The notes beneath the pieces are model-generated. The model did no database searches. It saw only the letters and a list, made by a program, of their open reading frames with translations, and was not told the DNA's origin. Shown in pieces: positions 1,605 through 60,985 of a stretch of 64,000 bases of DNA. Every line of letters begins with the position of its first letter. The stretch's first letter is position 1. The stretch lies in NCBI GenBank assembly GCA_002422025.1, contig DISV01000005.1, positions 203,518 to 267,517 of the forward strand. The letters run 5' to 3'. The position numbers and the translations under genes are program-made. Source of the DNA: Patescibacteria group bacterium UBA6201 (GTDB lineage: Bacteria > Patescibacteriota > Minisyncoccia > Phycocordibacterales > UBA918).

Positions 1605-1726
1605 ATCCTTTGTGTAATAAAACTTATAATCCACACGCCATAACACGCAAAAGACGGCACAGAGTGCCGTTTGTCTAAAAATTTGCGGTTACTTATTTTT
1701 TATAAACATTACCCCCAGATGTTTAT

Positions 1727-1854
1727 TAGACTTTTTCAAGATTAGCGCATCTGCACTGGTTTCAGAATTTTGACTTGTCACCTTAGTTTGTCTAAGGCTC
1801 TGTCGCCAAAACTCTTCCAACCAGCACATCTGCATCTAATTTTAAAAAAGTCTA
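1727..1854 (+). repeat. Copy B of a 128-bp repeated structured element (see findings). Its closing arms are tagactttttcaagatta and taattttaaaaaagtcta.
   Basis: ~85% identical to copy A over ~110 nt with the same helix layout. Confidence 0.6.
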
Positions 1855-2246
1855 TCGCTCTAAGATTCAGGTGGCTAAAACCGCAACACAATCGCCCTCA
1901 AATCACAAGTGGATAAAACATAACAGAAAATTAAGTTTATTGCAACCCTCACTACTTAATAAGTTAAGGTTTTGCTAGAAAATTTGGAATAAGGAAAACA
2001 CTAGGTGATTTAAAGGTTTTTTTTGATGAAACTTGCCAGAGGACGGCAAAACAAAATTACCTTATCAAGTGTGGGGACATGGCCCTTTTTGGGGAAAACT
2101 AGCTTGACGACTCTTATTCTCGTCACTTCCTATAACTAATGGATTTATGACGGGCCTATATATTTATATTGCTAATTATATTAAATGTTGTATAACAAAG
2201 TTAGATATCGTAGAACACAAACAAACACTTCTGCAGGAGGGATTGA

Positions 2247-3583: not shown

Positions 3584-3937
3584 TTATATCTTTAGGTCAT
3601 CGATTGCCTGATCCAAAGACTTTGGCTCACTTGGTGTAGCTTCATCAGCACTTGGTGCCATTGAAGCAGCCATATCCTGACTGACTCGGCCTCCTTCTGG
3701 TTCGTTAATCTTTAGGTTAACGCGAGCATCATGCTTCATTCCAACAACACGAAGAAGAGTACGGATTGCTTTAGCAGTGTTCCCAGAGCGACCGATTATC
3801 TTACCCATATCTTCAGCATGCACATCGAGAGTCAAGAGTACTCCCATCTCATCTACGGTACGGTTGGTCTTTACTGATTCCGGATGGTCGACCAGAGATT
3901 TTACTAGAGTCTCTAAAAATTGCTGATCTTCTTGCAT
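3584..3937 (-). CDS. KH-domain RNA-binding protein (YlqC/KhpA-like)
   Basis: GKIIGRSGNTAKAIRTLL is a KH GXXG loop. Its position between rpsP and trmD matches the conserved rpsP-ylqC-(rimM)-trmD context. Confidence 0.75.
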   Translation of the reverse strand: MQEDQQFLETLVKSLVDHPESVKTNRTVDEMGVLLTLDVHAEDMGKIIGRSGNTAKAIRTLLRVVGMKHDARVNLKINEPEGGRVSQDMAASMAPSADEATPSEPKSLDQAIDDLKI

Positions 3938-4038
3938 ATCTTGATTTGTTAGTCGGGGTAAAGCGTCCGGCGAACCGGCCGTTAGTTAAATGGTAACAGT
4001 CGGCAAATAAAGCGCAATCAACAGATGTGAGTATCCTT

Positions 4039-4086
4039 CTCTATATCATATAAGATACACCAGAGTGTATCTTATATGATATAGAG
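4039..4086. repeat. 48-bp perfect AT-rich palindrome ctctatatcatataagatacac-caga-gtgtatcttatatgatatagag
   Basis: 22-bp arms with a 4-nt centre. Related copies at 18783-18827 and 44704-44723. Confidence 0.8.
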
Positions 4087-4144
4087 AATAGTTTAGGCGA
4101 AGTGGATCTGTGAGTGTGTCTTAGTCTGATGGACTTCTGGTGGA

Positions 4145-22621: not shown

Positions 22622-22955
22622 GGGGGTTGACCCCCACACCAGTTTTGTTATTGAAGACTTGCTTTTATCCTACGCTTAAGCTGAGCTAGGGCGTTACCGT
22701 CCTTTTTTAAGGACCACTCCCTGTGTCTTGCGTCATTTTCTAGCAAAAAAGCTTCGTAGTACCGTAGAGTAAAGGGTTCCCTCCCTTTCGTAGCAGGACT
22801 CTGACCTTGATTATGTTCAGCAAGTCTTCGTCTCAAGTCAGTAGTTGAACCTAGGTATAGTTGATTATCCCTTTGACTTTTAAGGATATATACATAAAAC
22901 ATCATTATATTATGATCTGATTCGTGACTATAACAAAACTGGTGTGGGGGTTGAC
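22622..22955. mobile_element. GIY-YIG gene cassette bracketed by 26-bp inverted repeats (IR-L 22626-22651 GTTGACCCCCACACCAGTTTTGTTAT; IR-R 22930-22955 ATAACAAAACTGGTGTGGGGGTTGAC)
   Basis: The IRs match 25/26. IR-L overlaps the stop codon. IR-R supplies an outward TTGACA -35 for the 23010 gene and an inward TTGTTA -35 for the GIY-YIG gene. Confidence 0.55.
22648..22905 (-). CDS. GIY-YIG nuclease domain protein (UPF0213/YhbQ-like, 85 aa)
   Basis: FYVYILKSQRDNQLYLGSTTDLRRRLAEHNQG is a GIY-YIG motif. Confidence 0.8.
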   Translation of the reverse strand: MMFYVYILKSQRDNQLYLGSTTDLRRRLAEHNQGQSPATKGREPFTLRYYEAFLLENDARHREWSLKKDGNALAQLKRRIKASLQ

Positions 22956-31678: not shown

Positions 31679-31711
31679 GAGCCGGCTGTCAGGCTTCCGC
31701 TGACGACCTAC
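31679..31711 (-). repeat. 33-bp partial duplicate of the tRNA-Thr 3' half (T-arm plus acceptor 3' strand), with altered T-loop
   Basis: gagccggctgtcaggcttccgctgacgacctac compared with gagagccggctgtcaggcttgaactgacgacctac of the tRNA gene 115 bp away. Confidence 0.6.
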
Positions 31712-31826
31712 TTTGTCAAACGAGTAGTCATATGGAAGCTTGCTTACATATGAGCTACGAGTGCAGACAAAGAAAGCTATGCTTACGGTTTACATCCATA
31801 TGATATCCGTATCATAAAAATGTGAG

Positions 31827-31899
31827 AGCCGGCTGTCAGGCTTGAACTGACGACCTACGGTTTACAAAACCGTTGCTCTACCAACTGAGCTAAGCCGGC
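31827..31899 (-). tRNA. tRNA-Thr (anticodon UGU); CCA not encoded
   Basis: GCCGGCT-TA-GCTC-AGTTGGTA-GAGC-A-ACGGT-TTTGTAA-ACCGT-AGGTC-GTCAG-TTCAAGC-CTGAC-AGCCGGC-T folds as a canonical cloverleaf. Palindromic TTGTATTATAATACAA with -10 TATAAT upstream. Confidence 0.85.
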
Positions 31900-32042
31900 T
31901 CTCACATTTTTATGACCGAATGAACGATGGTTGTATTATAATACAAAACTTTGCAACACTCTCTTGGAGTGTTGCAACTCCACAGCTGTTCTATCTTAAC
32001 TCATCTACAAGTATAGGATATTAGTACAGTTTGTTAAATTTT

Positions 32043-44069: not shown

Positions 44070-44702
44070 TCACGCCAGAGATGCAAAATAACCGTTTTCT
44101 AGCATGTACTTACTGAGCACTTCATTGAAACGTTTTATATAGGAAAATTCACTGACATATTTGTCTTTAATGCTTCGGCTTTGAGAGAAGGTTACATTGT
44201 TTTGTATACAAATAGCCTTTCCATTTTCGTTTATTAAATGGAATAAAGGTTCAATTTTATCAATAGCTTTTACAAACTTCGATTCAATGGTGATTTGATC
44301 GTCATATTCCTTTAAACACGTCGATGCGGATTTTCTGATAATTTCTGGCAAAAGTTCCAACACCTCTTTCTGAGCATCATATTCCTTAGCTCTGTCAGTG
44401 TCAGTTTTTAAGTATCCAATTGTGTCACCAGTGAGAATCTCGTCTATATCGTGATAAAGAGTCATTTGTTGAATACGAGCATAATTCCAGGTATCAGTTT
44501 CCTCTAATGGTAAAAAATAATCAATTAATGCCATCATTCCATATACATGCTCTGCCACAGACTCAGTGTCTATTACTTCAGTGCGCTGATGGTGGTATCG
44601 GATGACTCGCTTCATTCTAAAGATTTCCTGAATTTTTCTGAATTCTTCCCACACAAACGTATCGTCCTCCAATATTCTTTTTCGGGTTTCTTCTAAAGTC
44701 AT
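44070..44702 (-). CDS. HD-domain phosphohydrolase (YfbR-like 5'-deoxynucleotidase family)
   Basis: ESVAEHVYGMMAL ... LYHDIDEILTGD HD motif. Confidence 0.7.
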   Translation of the reverse strand: MTLEETRKRILEDDTFVWEEFRKIQEIFRMKRVIRYHHQRTEVIDTESVAEHVYGMMALIDYFLPLEETDTWNYARIQQMTLYHDIDEILTGDTIGYLKTDTDRAKEYDAQKEVLELLPEIIRKSASTCLKEYDDQITIESKFVKAIDKIEPLFHLINENGKAICIQNNVTFSQSRSIKDKYVSEFSYIKRFNEVLSKYMLENGYFASLA

Positions 44703-44703
44703 A

Positions 44704-44723
44704 GTGTATCTTATATGATATAC
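44704..44723. repeat. half-copy (single arm) of the AT-rich palindrome: gtgtatcttatatgatatac
   Basis: Identical to the right arm at 4065-4086. Lies 1-4 nt upstream of the HD gene ATG. Confidence 0.7.
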
Positions 44724-44730
44724 GAACTAA

Positions 44731-44770
44731 TTTAGCCCTACTGTCATTGATGATAGTAGGTAGGGCTAAA
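44731..44770 (-). terminator. hairpin tttagccctact...agtag(gtag)ggctaaa
   Basis: Downstream of pepA. Confidence 0.5.
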
Positions 44771-47507: not shown

Positions 47508-48446
47508 TTATAAAGTTACACCGATTTTCTTGTGGATTTCGATCATTTTAGCACTCGCTCGCTCGCGCGCCTTTTCTGCGCCGTCCCTTAGAACCGATTT
47601 TACCTGCTCATCGGTTATGTTGGCTCGCTTCTCACGCATTGGTGCTATCAGTGCCTCAATATCATTGAGTAAAGCCTCCTTGAGATTCTTATAGCTACCT
47701 TTGTTCTCTTCATAAAGTTTTTCTAGCTCTGCTTCTGAACGAAATAGTTTGTGAATTGAGTATACATTCCGAGGGCGCTCACCTGTAGAGTCCGTTACAA
47801 TACTCATCACTGCCTTTTGTACCTCTTCCTTACTACCAAATAGTGGAATGGTGTTCTTGTAACTTTTGGACATTTTGGCGCCGTCCGTACCTGGAATCAC
47901 TCCGACTCCCTCAAGAATCATTTCTTGAGGAGCAGTGAAGGTGTCTCCGTAAGCGAGATTAAATTTATTAGCAGCCTCTCTAGTGTATTCAACGTGTTGT
48001 TTTTGGTCTTGCCCCACCGGCACCACTTCGGTGTCATACAAAAGAATGTCAGCCGCCATCAACATTGGGTAATTGAATAGGCCGGCGTTTGCTTCTAACC
48101 CTTTAGCCACCTTGTCCTTATAGGCATGTGCTAATTCTAGAAATGGAACGGTGACCAAGCACTCAAATATCCAAGCCAGCTCTGTATGTTCTGGTACATC
48201 AGATTGTTTAAAGATTATTGCCTCATTAGGGTCAACCCCCGCTGCCAAGTAGTCTCTAACCACATCCTTAGTGTTTTGTCGCAGTAAAGAAGGCTCCTTA
48301 ATGGTAGTTAAGGCATGATAGTCCACAACCATTAAATGGCTGTCGTAATCCTTATATAAGTCAACAAAAGGCTTCAGTGCCCCAAAATAATTGCCTAAGT
48401 GGAGTGCACCAGATGGTTGCAATCCGGTCAAGAGTCGCTTTTTCAT
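47508..48446 (-). CDS. trpS: tryptophanyl-tRNA synthetase
   Basis: LTGLQPSGALHLGNYFGA HIGH region and KMSKS. Confidence 0.85.
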   Translation of the reverse strand: MKKRLLTGLQPSGALHLGNYFGALKPFVDLYKDYDSHLMVVDYHALTTIKEPSLLRQNTKDVVRDYLAAGVDPNEAIIFKQSDVPEHTELAWIFECLVTVPFLELAHAYKDKVAKGLEANAGLFNYPMLMAADILLYDTEVVPVGQDQKQHVEYTREAANKFNLAYGDTFTAPQEMILEGVGVIPGTDGAKMSKSYKNTIPLFGSKEEVQKAVMSIVTDSTGERPRNVYSIHKLFRSEAELEKLYEENKGSYKNLKEALLNDIEALIAPMREKRANITDEQVKSVLRDGAEKARERASAKMIEIHKKIGVTL

Positions 48447-48491
48447 CCTGAAATACTAGCAGAAATAGGTGGAAACACGAAATGCCTTGCA

Positions 48492-48618
48492 TAGATTGTT
48501 TAAAAATGGATGCAGATGTGCTAGTTGGAAGAATTTTAGTGACGGAGCCTTAGATAAACTAAGGTGATAGAGCTAAAATTCTGAAACTAGTGCAGACGCG
48601 CCATTTTTAAACAATCTA
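48492..48618 (-). repeat. Copy A of the 128-bp repeated structured element. Its outer arms are a perfect 18-bp inverted repeat (tagattgtttaaaaatgg / ccatttttaaacaatcta). It sits between the HK stop codon and trpS.
   Basis: The arms are seen directly. ~85% identical to copy B. Confidence 0.6.
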
Positions 48619-50325
48619 AGCCCACTTTGCTTCAATGCCGTTGAGTGGCATCACAAAGGTAAAAGTGGAACCTTTATTTTCTCCTGGTGAAGTTACGGTA
48701 ATATCGCCCCCCATCCCCCTAGCCATCGTGCGAGCTATGTAGAGACCGAGTCCTGTACCGGTCACGTTTATTTCATTAGCGTTCTTGGCACGCTCAAATT
48801 TCTGGAAAAGAGTTTTTAGGTTCTCTGGCGAGATACCGATACCATGGTCAGTCACGTCAACATAGGCTGTCTTTGTTTGTAAATCTTTTCTAACAACCAC
48901 TGTTATAGTGCCTGTCTCCTTTGTGTACTTAAGTGCGTTATCTATAAGGTTTTGTACTATTTGTCTAGACTTACCAATATCAAGTTTTACTGCAGCACTG
49001 CCTTCAATGTTAGGCTTAAATTCAAGAGTAATACCTTTTTTAGCCGCTACTGGTAATAGTTCAACCACCACTTCCTCTGCTAATTTTTTAAGGTCGTAAT
49101 CGGCAATCTCGTATTTCATATTACCGGCTTCGATACGTGACACATTGAGGTAATCTTCAATTGAGAGTGCCATATGACGTGAAGCGTCTGATACGTGTGT
49201 CAGAACTTCTTTAACCTTTGGACTGACTTCGCCGTAAGATCCTTCAATAATCATCGAAATGTATCCACGTACGGAAGTCAGAGGACTTCTTAGCTGATGT
49301 GATGCTATCGATACGAATTCAGACTTCATTTTATCTAGCCGTTCTAGACGCATGTTAACTCCAGCTAGTTCGGTGGCCAGTCTCTGTGCTAGTTGTTTTT
49401 GTTGAATCTCGTTCTTAGTACTCCTAACTAATAAGGTACCGAGTATTAATACCAGGACAAAAGTAATTACTGATACTACTCGAACCGTGTCCAGACTTTG
49501 AAGAAAAATAATACTAAAGGTAAGTATTGCCAAGGCTACTAGAAGTAGTTGTGAAGTGACTATGTTCGTTTTAAAAGCATTAAATTGAGTAATCAAGGCA
49601 GCAATGATGGCAACCATAACTGGCATACCAAATATTCCATATTGTCCTATTGTCCAATTCTCGAAGAAGCTTCCGGCTATATTACCGAATGAGAAGATGC
49701 CGAGAAAAAGTATGATAGCGATGGTAGTAAATATTGAAAGATTACGCTTTTTCCCTTCGTCAGCAGTGGTTAATAGATAGATAACCAGCCTAGCCACAAT
49801 TGCCAAAGCAATAATTAGTTGAACAAAATAACTATAGAACACCAATGGCCCCTCTGTAACCTCCCTCCAACAATTTGTTAAGTTGAAGTTCTCAATCATC
49901 AAAGAAGTCTGTGTGAATAAAATTATTGGCAATATAAGTACCACAAAAGGTATTAGCCAACTTAAAGGAAGAGGTTTTTCATATAGTACATTGTGAGAAA
50001 ACGCAAAGGCAGTTAAATAAATGATTGGCTCCAAAAGAATAAGGACAGACCAAACAAACATAATTGTCTGAGGTGAATCATTGGCCCATAGTATTAAGTC
50101 ACCGAAAGTCCATATTGAAAATAAAAGTACAGTCAAAAAGAACAGTTGATTCTGCTTACGTTTTCTGTCATTGAAATAAATTATGAACGCTAACGGTAAG
50201 GCCAATAGTACCGGTAAGATGTGTGAGTAATAGATCAGCGGGTCAAAGACGTTTTCAGAAATAATCAACCAAGACGTAGGTGCCCACTCACAAAATGTTG
50301 CATAGTCTACTAGTGGAGGAACCAT
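48616..50325 (-). CDS. sensor histidine kinase with large N-terminal polytopic membrane domain
   Basis: H-box SHQLRSPLTSVRGY. HATPase N/G boxes NLIDNALKYT and GTGLGLYIA. ~7 TM segments. No response regulator adjacent. Confidence 0.8.
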   Translation of the reverse strand: MVPPLVDYATFCEWAPTSWLIISENVFDPLIYYSHILPVLLALPLAFIIYFNDRKRKQNQLFFLTVLLFSIWTFGDLILWANDSPQTIMFVWSVLILLEPIIYLTAFAFSHNVLYEKPLPLSWLIPFVVLILPIILFTQTSLMIENFNLTNCWREVTEGPLVFYSYFVQLIIALAIVARLVIYLLTTADEGKKRNLSIFTTIAIILFLGIFSFGNIAGSFFENWTIGQYGIFGMPVMVAIIAALITQFNAFKTNIVTSQLLLVALAILTFSIIFLQSLDTVRVVSVITFVLVLILGTLLVRSTKNEIQQKQLAQRLATELAGVNMRLERLDKMKSEFVSIASHQLRSPLTSVRGYISMIIEGSYGEVSPKVKEVLTHVSDASRHMALSIEDYLNVSRIEAGNMKYEIADYDLKKLAEEVVVELLPVAAKKGITLEFKPNIEGSAAVKLDIGKSRQIVQNLIDNALKYTKETGTITVVVRKDLQTKTAYVDVTDHGIGISPENLKTLFQKFERAKNANEINVTGTGLGLYIARTMARGMGGDITVTSPGENKGSTFTFVMPLNGIEAKWA

Positions 50326-59381: not shown

Positions 59382-59813
59382 CTATACGCGACGTGGCTTT
59401 TTAGCGCGAGGACCGTTATGGGGCACTGGCGTCATATCAATAATCTTCGTGACCGATACTCCCTTTCCGCTAAAAGCACGGAGGGCAGACTCGCGTCCAG
59501 CTCCGATACCGCGAATGATAACCTCAGCATCACGCATCCCCATCTGATTTGCCTTGTCACCGATTATTTCCCCAACTTTTGCTGCGGCAAAAGGCGTAGA
59601 CTTACGTGACCCCTTGAATCCGATAGCTCCGCTAGAGGCTGCGATAAGACTATTACCCTTAAGATCAGCTAAGGTCAGGATGGTGTTATTAAAGGTAGCC
59701 AAGATGTTAAGACGACCAGAAATCACCTTCTTCTTAGGAATACGATTAAGAGCACGGGAAGTTCCCGCTACATCTGATCCCCCACCCTTTTTTATAATTC
59801 TTTTCTTACCCAT
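59382..59813 (-). CDS. rpsK: 30S ribosomal protein S11
   Basis: ATFNNTILTLADLKGN ... GKGVSVTKIIDMTPVPHNGPR. Confidence 0.9.
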   Translation of the reverse strand: MGKKRIIKKGGGSDVAGTSRALNRIPKKKVISGRLNILATFNNTILTLADLKGNSLIAASSGAIGFKGSRKSTPFAAAKVGEIIGDKANQMGMRDAEVIIRGIGAGRESALRAFSGKGVSVTKIIDMTPVPHNGPRAKKPRRV

Positions 59814-59967: not shown

Positions 59968-60345
59968 TTAAGTTTTTTCAAGCTTACGGCGTCCTGATCC
60001 CATCGTCTTCTTAACTCCCTTCAATGTTCGTGCATTCGTCTTGGTGCGCTGTCCACGTGCCGGTAAACGCTTTGCATGACGTGAACCACGGTATGAAGCG
60101 ATATCCTTAAGTCGCTTGATGTCGCTTGATACCTTACGTCTTAATTCTCCTTCGATTGTAAAAGATTCAACCTTTTCACGAACACTGTTTTCTAGCTCCG
60201 GTGAAAGATCTGCTGGCTTAATAGAGGCTTCAATCTTGAGCTCCGCCAAGATTTCTTTGGCGCGAACTAGACCAATACCATAAATAGCGGTAAGGCCGTA
60301 AGAAAGCTGTTTGTTATCTGGAATGTTTATACCTGAGATTCTCAT
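59968..60345 (-). CDS. rpsM: 30S ribosomal protein S13
   Basis: MRISGINIPDNKQLSYGLTAIYGIG. Confidence 0.9.
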   Translation of the reverse strand: MRISGINIPDNKQLSYGLTAIYGIGLVRAKEILAELKIEASIKPADLSPELENSVREKVESFTIEGELRRKVSSDIKRLKDIASYRGSRHAKRLPARGQRTKTNARTLKGVKKTMGSGRRKLEKT

Positions 60346-60767: not shown

Positions 60768-60825
60768 CGGGTGTGAGTTTAGCAAATACTTAGTAAAACG
60801 TCAACCCCTACACCAGTTTTGTCGT
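60768..60825 (-). promoter_or_regulatory. solo copy of the 26-bp repeat (60800-60825) providing the -35 of a TTGACG-N17-TAAACT promoter for the infA/ribosomal operon
   Basis: The minus strand reads ggtgtaggggTTGACGttttactaagtatttgcTAAACT 14 nt before the infA ATG. Confidence 0.45.
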
Positions 60826-60985
60826 CGTTATGATTTTACTATTCTTAAGCACCTAGGGTCTTTTTGCTTATGAATTGAGTTTAGAGTTTTACTCTTGGTC
60901 TCTAAACGCAAAATTACGTCAAAATTGGTGTCTTAGTCCAGTCCAGCGCCAGTGTTCTGGCGGGTCAGGATGGACTCGAAGGTAC

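Follow-up and report, generated by a model that had tools for sequence, protein, structure and literature searches.

Several classes of bacterial repeat resemble the element analysed here. REP/BIME sequences and REPINs are interspersed extragenic palindromes at gene 3′ ends, often a few nucleotides from the stop codon; REP/BIME copies near stop codons affect translation and mRNA fate, and REPINs form hairpins of ~100 nt in which pairing is kept by compensatory change. In E. coli, REP hairpins no more than 15 nt from a stop codon stall ribosomes (PMC12306157). Such stalling is the nearest functional precedent for an element located on stop codons. ERIC/IRU sequences (127 bp) and Rickettsia palindromic elements (RPE) share its size (~125–127 bp) and are, like it, imperfect whole-length palindromes that form transcribed parts of housekeeping operons; RPE also inhabit reduced genomes and can supply the last codons of a protein. 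MITEs that target TA (Correia/nemis, IS630-derived) have terminal inverted repeats, vary in presence and absence, may insert at TA and give rise to mRNA hairpins that RNase III can cut. Integron attC sites, among them the 120–129-bp Vibrio cholerae repeats, are imperfect palindromes of ~125 nt placed directly after an ORF, in which the ORF-complementary strand folds and structure is conserved more than sequence; their core sites are RYYYAAC in the 5′ arm (R″) and GTTRRRY in the 3′ arm (R′). Bidirectional intrinsic terminators present an A-tract, a hairpin and a U-tract at gene ends, and G·U pairs make their strength directional.

The element described here is a hairpin that recurs in a 64-kb window (the whole 64,000-nt stretch of DNA that was analysed). 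Each of the closest known kinds fails at least one tested defining feature, and the element is neither a known RNA family nor a decaying MITE. Unlike REP and REPIN sequences, it has no GTAG/CGTC tag of the sort that stands at the foot of the 20–40-nt REP palindromes, its termini being TAAAACTTCC/TAGATTG and similar; it is low in copy number, is built as a single long rod in which the G·A loops are conserved, not as a pair of short REPs, and keeps a fixed orientation relative to the gene, with resident copies under strong purifying selection. The window contains no RAYT (Y1 transposase) gene. The element bears no apparent similarity in sequence to the ERIC core. In contrast to both ERIC and RPE, it is found in CPR lineages alone, and selection acts on the strand antisense to the mRNA. 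Unlike those of a MITE, the termini vary and covary, with no fixed transposase site; no partner IS was seen, and the copies are old and conserved. Neither an autonomous partner with the same termini nor young, near-identical copies occur in the window or in the related loci examined. Whereas attC sites have the core order given above, on both strands of the element it is the 5′ arm that carries GTT and the 3′ arm that carries AAC (CTGGTT..AACCAG); there is no integrase and no cassette array, and the neighbours are syntenic essential genes (ribosomal proteins, rpoB, trpS, rnc). Finally, its ~95–125-nt hairpin with conserved loops and apical stem is unlike a bidirectional terminator, and a canonical terminator often follows it; a simple terminator scan at copy A (below) called no terminator-like site, such a site being a short G+C-rich hairpin with a U-run directly behind it.

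An initial annotation of the window had placed three copies of 127–128 nt at 48492–48618 (A), 1727–1854 (B) and 10890–11017 (C). All three are borne out by the sequence, but the count is too low: covariance models find two more, D and E, of which E is weak. The five copies and the features next to them are as follows.

1728–1852, structured strand minus (same direction as rpoB): copy B, 129–132 bits
3471–3596, structured strand plus: copy E, weak, 23–26 bits, E about 0.001
10891–11017, structured strand plus: copy C, divergent, 24–27 bits
48493–48618, structured strand plus (antisense to the flanking genes): copy A, 128–129 bits
59844–59970, structured strand plus: copy D, 79–107 bits
1654–1670, minus: terminator-like hairpin and T-run, 57 nt past B on B's structured strand and just ahead of rpoB
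3584–3937, minus: KhpA gene, its final 13 nt overlapped by copy E
10092–10784: rnc, the RNase III gene
11000–11893, minus: nusB-NUDIX gene, its last 18 nt, including the TGA stop, inside copy C
48453–48461, minus: extended −10-like TGCTAGTAT, 7 nt ahead of the trpS ATG
48616–50325, minus: histidine kinase (HK) gene, upstream of copy A
48616–48618, minus: TAG stop of the HK gene, the first triplet of A in mRNA sense
59382–59813, minus: S11 gene, on one side of copy D
59968–60345, minus: S13 gene, on the other side of copy D

Copy E, weak in score, is supported by an orthologue at the same junction in the related locus L028. A and B, previously put at ~85% identity, are 83–88% identical over the two arms, and C is divergent; the perfect 18-bp outer inverted repeat of A and the three compensatory changes quoted in the initial annotation are all present. 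The shared core, TCACCTTA-N7-TAAGGCTC, occurs three times in the window against 0.21 expected, and none of 100 shuffles reaches three. The last 3 nt of A on the structured strand are the complement of the HK stop, and C supplies six C-terminal codons of nusB-NUDIX, so that both copies do lie at the upstream stop codon as had been stated; the next genes, said to be 45–105 nt away, start 46 nt (trpS) and 106 nt (rnc) beyond them. Copy B lies 81–110 nt upstream of rpoB, within a 630-bp gap that is non-coding as annotated. It is inserted into a conserved non-coding trmD–rpoB stretch and is an exception to the stop-codon rule. The terminator-like hairpin beyond B is conserved in L025 and L028, and a canonical hairpin lies between E and trmD. 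In copy D the apical stem has wholly covaried (AUGUAU/AUACAU), with the GA..G·U..GA frame kept. A peptide-coding role was rejected: the ATG frames of A and B differ, and the element is non-coding.

Two of these copies have further structured sequence beside them. The trmD–rpoB stretch is conserved in three species (window ~1650–1990, minus strand; L025 10670–10920; L028 10670–11120) and contains a promoter-like TTGCAA-N17-TATGTT, a long-range pairing GTTGCGGTT/AACCGCAA, a hairpin ATAAACAT..ATGTTTAT and a terminator. Judged by these motifs, it looks like an unannotated small RNA gene or a structured rpoB leader, with B in one loop. Between copy C and rnc, an AT-rich inverted repeat at 10803–10866, with 29-nt arms that are 83% complementary, is likewise conserved in L025 and L028.

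Relatives of the host (Kaiser-, Nomura- and Campbellbacteria-like Paceibacteria) carry ~25 more copies, for ~30 unique copies in total. With two covariance models, R1 and R2, trained on the better-folding strand, second and third copies are present in most fetched loci. Copy density is ~1 per 10–20 kb where copies occur, and L018 has a 20-kb syntenic stretch without any. Species-representative genomes scanned with the pattern TTCAGA..TCACCTTA..TAAGGCTC yielded four loci, divided equally between one Candidatus Campbellbacteria MAG and one Candidatus Nomurabacteria MAG; the core pattern gave 13 further loci in metagenomes and no match in the viral contigs scanned. TrpS, TrmD and S13 homologues group the window with Kaiserbacteria/Nomurabacteria-like Paceibacteria. 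Searching the whole window against Rfam 15 at the gathering threshold returned tRNA only and no match to the element, and in E-value mode copy A gave only generic hairpin noise, at 11–18 bits against thresholds of 54–245. We found no description of the hairpin element in the searchable literature on CPR repeats and structured RNAs. These ~125-nt hairpin elements form an old, Paceibacteria/Parcubacteria-specific family that has not been described before.

Other repeats and islands occur in the window and at the related loci. A second repeat family (window 4037–4088, 18779–18827 and 44700–44735) is a perfect 24-bp palindrome (TTCTCTATATCATATAAGATACAC / GTGTATCTTATATGATATAGAGAA) with a 4-nt loop, and its copies sit just past the ends of the S16, ThrRS and a 465-aa gene. 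The tRNA-Thr(tgt) gene at 31826–31899 (minus strand) is enclosed by a perfect 23-nt inverted repeat (31812–31834 / 31893–31915), and a 33-nt piece of this region is repeated at 91% at 31679–31711, where no second tRNA was called. A module of ~55–58 nt (TGACC..TTTTAAGGAG-short variable hairpin-GACTATAAAAA..TGCC..TGTGGTG) is nested inside several of the elements (L009 2055–2250, in both arms; L013 9365–9430; L007 4050–4105; L028 10860–10920). It invariably points along the sense transcription of its surroundings, whichever way the host element faces, and could be another small module, either mobile or an RNA. In L009, direct repeats of ~40 nt (TTCAGTCCACAACTTC..GAAAGAAAAATC.TCGGTTA; 1990–2030 and 2290–2335) flank the element downstream of gyrA and are absent at the orthologous L002 site. 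L030 has an island between S9 and grpE (10687–14647) with ubiquitin-like, ThiF/E1-like and BubE genes and an HTH/M78 peptidase pair, none of which is there in the window.

The element folds into a rod hairpin of 49 consensus pairs, 24 of them with compensatory changes (RNAalifold, eight copies). In the eight-copy alignment, 94.3% of paired cells are complementary against 81.4% in shuffles, and 25 pairs have double changes against 9.9, a value that none of 500 shuffles reaches; when the partner column is slid by 1–3 positions as a control, pairing falls to 29–49%. At least two Watson-Crick types occur at 45 of the 49 pairs among 28 unique copies. By the generic criterion for structured RNA, covariation lies above the controls and G·U pairs occur on one strand only. 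Read on the structured strand, the outermost part is an A/U-rich stem of ~17 bp (5′-side consensus TAAAACTTCCAAAATTGG), which has a run of 3–5 U inside it on both strands and is followed by a bulged A. In the next helix UGCA-GA-UGUGC pairs with GUGCA-GA-UGCG, and further in GUU-GGA-AGAAUUUU pairs with AAAAUUCU-GA-AAC; the internal loop below the apical stem has GA at the end of both sides. The structured strand holds three tandem G·A internal loops in all, as well as GGA motifs. The apical stem, GCCUUAG..CUAAGGU, has its closing G·U in 25 of the 28 copies. Compared by eye with the kink-turn consensus (C-stem, 3-nt bulge, tandem G·A/A·G, NC-stem), the apical GACA-GA-G..U-GA-C fits in some copies (G-C pair, ACA bulge) and fails in Campbell-type copies and in D.

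The initial annotation had proposed a new structured RNA. The repetition, the covarying helices and the absence of an Rfam match all stand, but the strand does not: selection preserves the fold of the opposite strand, and in every copy this reverse complement of the strand then described folds better. Fold energies on the structured and the opposite strand are −60.8 versus −45.3 kcal/mol for A, −61.8 versus −38.4 for B, −42.5 versus −32.4 for C and −47.3 versus −38.4 for E. With the orientation of 16 copies set solely by the sequence motif, the complement of the annotated strand had the better fold in all 16, by >8 kcal/mol in 15; the advantage of the structured strand is ~10–27 kcal/mol. The annotated strand gives z-scores for the long-rod fold of −11.1 (A), −5.5 (B) and −2.6 (C), but MAFFT and RNAalifold recover only 11 pairs on it, the helices emerging from its complement; what are tandem G·A loops on the structured strand read U·C/C·U on the annotated one. 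Consensus pairs in the 28 unique copies comprise 1034 Watson-Crick, 139 G·U, 21 A·C and 105 other, where an A·C on the structured strand is a G·U on the opposite one. Changes between orthologues show the same preference (29 double compensatory, 32 G·U to or from Watson-Crick, 6 A·C to or from Watson-Crick), and this pattern holds for A and C, whose structured strand is antisense to the mRNA. Among orthologues of A, the sense fold has drifted from −50 to −36 kcal/mol while the other strand has stayed at −60 to −64. On the mRNA-sense strand the pairing is interrupted by A·C and pyrimidine mismatches; weak as this strand is, it still folds at −30 to −50 kcal/mol. Mutation bias as the source of the G·U excess was ruled out by copy B, which shows the same bias despite its inverted orientation with respect to A, C, D and E. 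The structured-strand hairpin is maintained in place, even where it is antisense to the mRNA.

Close relatives differ in the presence of the element at four junctions. At HK|trpS the window, L004 and L021 carry the element, and L018, L019 and L022 do not. Since L019, the closest relative by trpS DNA (0.82), is among the empty ones, the element must have been gained or lost here at least twice, and the genomes that carry it are not monophyletic. Copy B has an orthologue in L028 and is seamlessly absent (within 1 nt) from L025. Copy E, also orthologous in L028, is deleted in L025 with ~11 nt of its 5′ end left behind, so this empty allele represents a loss. Copy D has an orthologue in L030, a degenerate one with an internal deletion in L035, and is absent from L033 and L037. 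Copy C occupies the same junction in the window, L025 and L028, with 9–11 double compensatory changes between orthologues, and its non-coding arm has tracked synonymous changes in the final nusB-NUDIX codons. Orthologue identity is 0.82–0.83 for A, 0.87 for B, 0.96 for D (window/L030), 0.90 and 0.60 for C and 0.50 for E; four-fold sites are 0.38–0.54 identical between genomes, and 0.65–0.74 for the closer window/L030 pair. Orthologues are closer than paralogues (A–A 0.82 versus A–B 0.78; B–B 0.85 versus B–A 0.72), the closest paralogues being 78% identical. Conservation therefore does not come from homogenisation between copies, and concerted evolution as its cause was ruled out. The resident copies are vertically inherited at fixed gene junctions under purifying selection.

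These junctions are gene ends. At ~20 of 25 independent loci the stop codon lies between −18 and +2 nt from the element edge, most commonly at exactly −3, and at ~20 of the 25 the structured strand is antisense to the gene whose stop lies in the hairpin base. The genes concerned are unrelated housekeeping genes (histidine kinase, S13, NusB-NUDIX, KhpA, S10, L6, S9, FtsZ, MurG, M23 peptidase, exonuclease, SecA, GyrA), and several junctions are inside ribosomal-protein operons. The exceptions point into a gene from upstream: B, towards rpoB, and a copy at L025 8782–8884, just before a conserved S16 promoter. L007 has a convergent pair in the order gene-stop, copy 1, bidirectional terminator, copy 2, stop-gene, where each copy faces read-through from the opposite gene. 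Canonical sense-direction terminators directly follow the element in L001, L007, L008, L010 and L017. The element itself is thus not a sense terminator, and the sense transcript at these five loci contains the weak strand; space for an antisense promoter is lacking there. Spacers before copies are as short as 18–30 nt, and at several loci a bidirectional terminator would halt an antisense polymerase before the element. A search for antisense promoters at the element loci gave only chance-level sigma-70-like matches, and orthologues do not share the −10-like hexamers of their AT-rich spacers. GC skew was tried as a marker of replication direction and dropped as uninformative, since skew at four-fold sites tracks the coding strand in both plus- and minus-strand genes.

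On the sense side, the extended −10-like TGCTAGTAT ahead of trpS is conserved in six genomes (window 48444–48461, minus strand, and the corresponding site of L004, L018, L019, L021 and L022). We infer from this motif that trpS has its own promoter just downstream of A, and its position 7 nt before the ATG suggests a leaderless trpS mRNA. A 20-nt motif, AAAACTGGTGTGGGGGTTGAC, lies at three other promoter-like sites in the window (22622–22651, 22930–22955 and 60800–60833), overlapping a TTGAC −35; the 270 nt between its first two copies (22650–22920) have no ORF and could encode an RNA.

We tentatively propose that the element is a direction-dependent cis-acting RNA hairpin that stops or destabilises incoming transcripts and lets the mRNA pass, an account of its function to which we give rather less than even odds. 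It is favoured because the strong strand always falls on the transcript that enters from outside. G·U and G·A pairs are stable, and their complements on the other strand, A·C and U·C, are not, which makes a palindrome strong on one strand and weak on the other. A polymerase entering the gene from outside, that is, in antisense at 3′ ends or by upstream read-through at 5′ ends, would then produce a near-perfect ~50-bp hairpin in its transcript, which would be stopped or marked for cleavage, either by virtue of the arrangement of A-tract, hairpin and U-tract or by serving as a substrate of the RNase III type. The sense mRNA would have only the mismatched, weaker hairpin and would be read and translated normally. 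The model presupposes that S13|S11 or L6|L18 is transcribed in antisense. Against this direction-dependent model, some close relatives seem to manage without single copies, no conserved antisense promoter was found, and the sense strand still folds stably.

Presence and absence at four junctions, with a non-monophyletic filled state at HK|trpS, would also be expected of selfish non-autonomous mobile DNA of the MITE/REPIN type, whose G·T/G·A-rich strand would move in single-stranded form, folded as a hairpin. On this account copies would persist mainly at sites whose mRNA receives the weaker complement, a strong hairpin at the stop codon being detrimental to translation, as when REP hairpins <16 nt from the stop stall E. 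coli ribosomes (PMC12306157). Termini common to different loci (TAAAACTTCC..GGAAGTTTTA) and the module nested within several copies fit such an origin. The A site is compatible with insertion into the TA of the stop codon, where a duplication would be indistinguishable since TA is palindromic and part of the stem. The presence/absence variation that a MITE would show, an alternative already raised in the initial annotation, is therefore real. Several observations speak against the rest of that alternative: the compared sites have no shared flank and no consistent target-site duplication, the empty allele at the E site is a deletion with a remnant, and neither the window nor ~400 kb of related loci has a gene for a transposase, an integrase or a reverse transcriptase, nor did the viral-contig scan return anything. 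Moreover, orthologous copies evolve slowly, being 82–96% identical although synonymous sites are near saturation; they are closer than paralogues, and so neither decaying nor homogenised, and in situ compensatory changes preserve their fold. We consider mobile DNA unlikely as the explanation. A further rival is a strand-specific folded DNA site, which could be a substrate for recombination or transposition in which one strand serves as a hairpin (in the manner of integron attC bottom strands or IS200/REP hairpins), or else a signal for replication or priming. Like the Vibrio attC/VCR sites, the strand that folds is ~125 nt long, complements the ORF before it and begins at the stop codon of that ORF; in DNA, too, no mismatches are more stable than G·T and tandem G·A, several loci have no promoter room on the structured strand, and alleles seamlessly without the element exist. 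Yet the attC core order is reversed here, the flanking genes are essential and syntenic rather than cassettes, with no recombinase gene nearby, the inversion of B against A, C, D and E on the same chromosome stretch speaks against a replication-tied orientation, and an almost invariant G·U is more typical of RNA. A DNA site of this kind seems to us very unlikely.

Two accounts place the function in RNA by other routes. The sense strand is certainly transcribed in ribosomal-protein operons and between stop codon and terminator, its hairpin remains stable, the stop codon is within the stem base, and copy C precedes rnc in three species, all of which would suit a sense-mRNA cis element at the stop codon: an RNase III site, a 3′-end stabiliser, or a device for ribosome or polymerase stalling or attenuation. 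The initial annotation had raised, beside a mobile element, a cis-acting RNA of this sort for processing or attenuation, possibly an RNase III substrate. The substitution pattern does not show this, since it is the complementary strand that is kept folded: A·C mismatches are tolerated ~5 times more than G·U on the sense strand, the opposite of selection for a sense helix, the sense fold of A has drifted where the antisense fold has not, and B is conserved in the opposite orientation relative to transcription. This leaves a sense-mRNA function quite unlikely. The copies could instead be independent small RNA genes opposite to their neighbours, acting in trans or as cis-antisense to the upstream gene; RNA-like motifs on the structured strand (G·U, tandem G·A, the bulged A, GGA) and the terminator after B on B's own strand are in keeping with this. 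But no conserved promoter precedes the copies, whose spacers shrink to as little as 18–30 nt, the copies carry no terminator of their own, and a family of dozens of diverged members, each of them conserved where it stands, is easier to reconcile with local roles than with a common function in trans. Independent small RNA genes are, in our view, a very improbable explanation.

The direction-dependent cis hairpin accounts less directly for parts of the structure. The distal outer stem also has strand-specific U·G pairs, which termination at the inner U-run does not need, and conservation of the loops and apical stem beyond what an asymmetric hairpin needs hints at a binding partner, perhaps a protein. 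A broader reading, possible but doubtful, is that the family represents a new class of gene-boundary signals, made strong on one strand and weak on the other by G·U and tandem G·A pairs, that from their places on stop codons and ahead of promoters trap, terminate or destroy transcripts from outside and let sense expression pass, or else serve a strand-specific protein, and in either case provide genome-wide insulation.

CPR/Patescibacteria make up a large share of bacterial diversity, and to our knowledge almost nothing is known of their non-coding elements. The family described here is widespread, easily modelled with R1 and R2 and clearly constrained, and it has an unusual signature, with selection on the strand opposite the mRNA and an element locked to stop codons in essential operons. 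Should the direction-dependent reading be wrong, the data would point to a strand-specific DNA or ribonucleoprotein function without a described counterpart. If the insulation reading is true, these bacteria, which have very few regulators, would possess a genome-wide system of this kind, and a direction-dependent hairpin, if confirmed, would show how streamlined genomes police antisense and read-through transcription.
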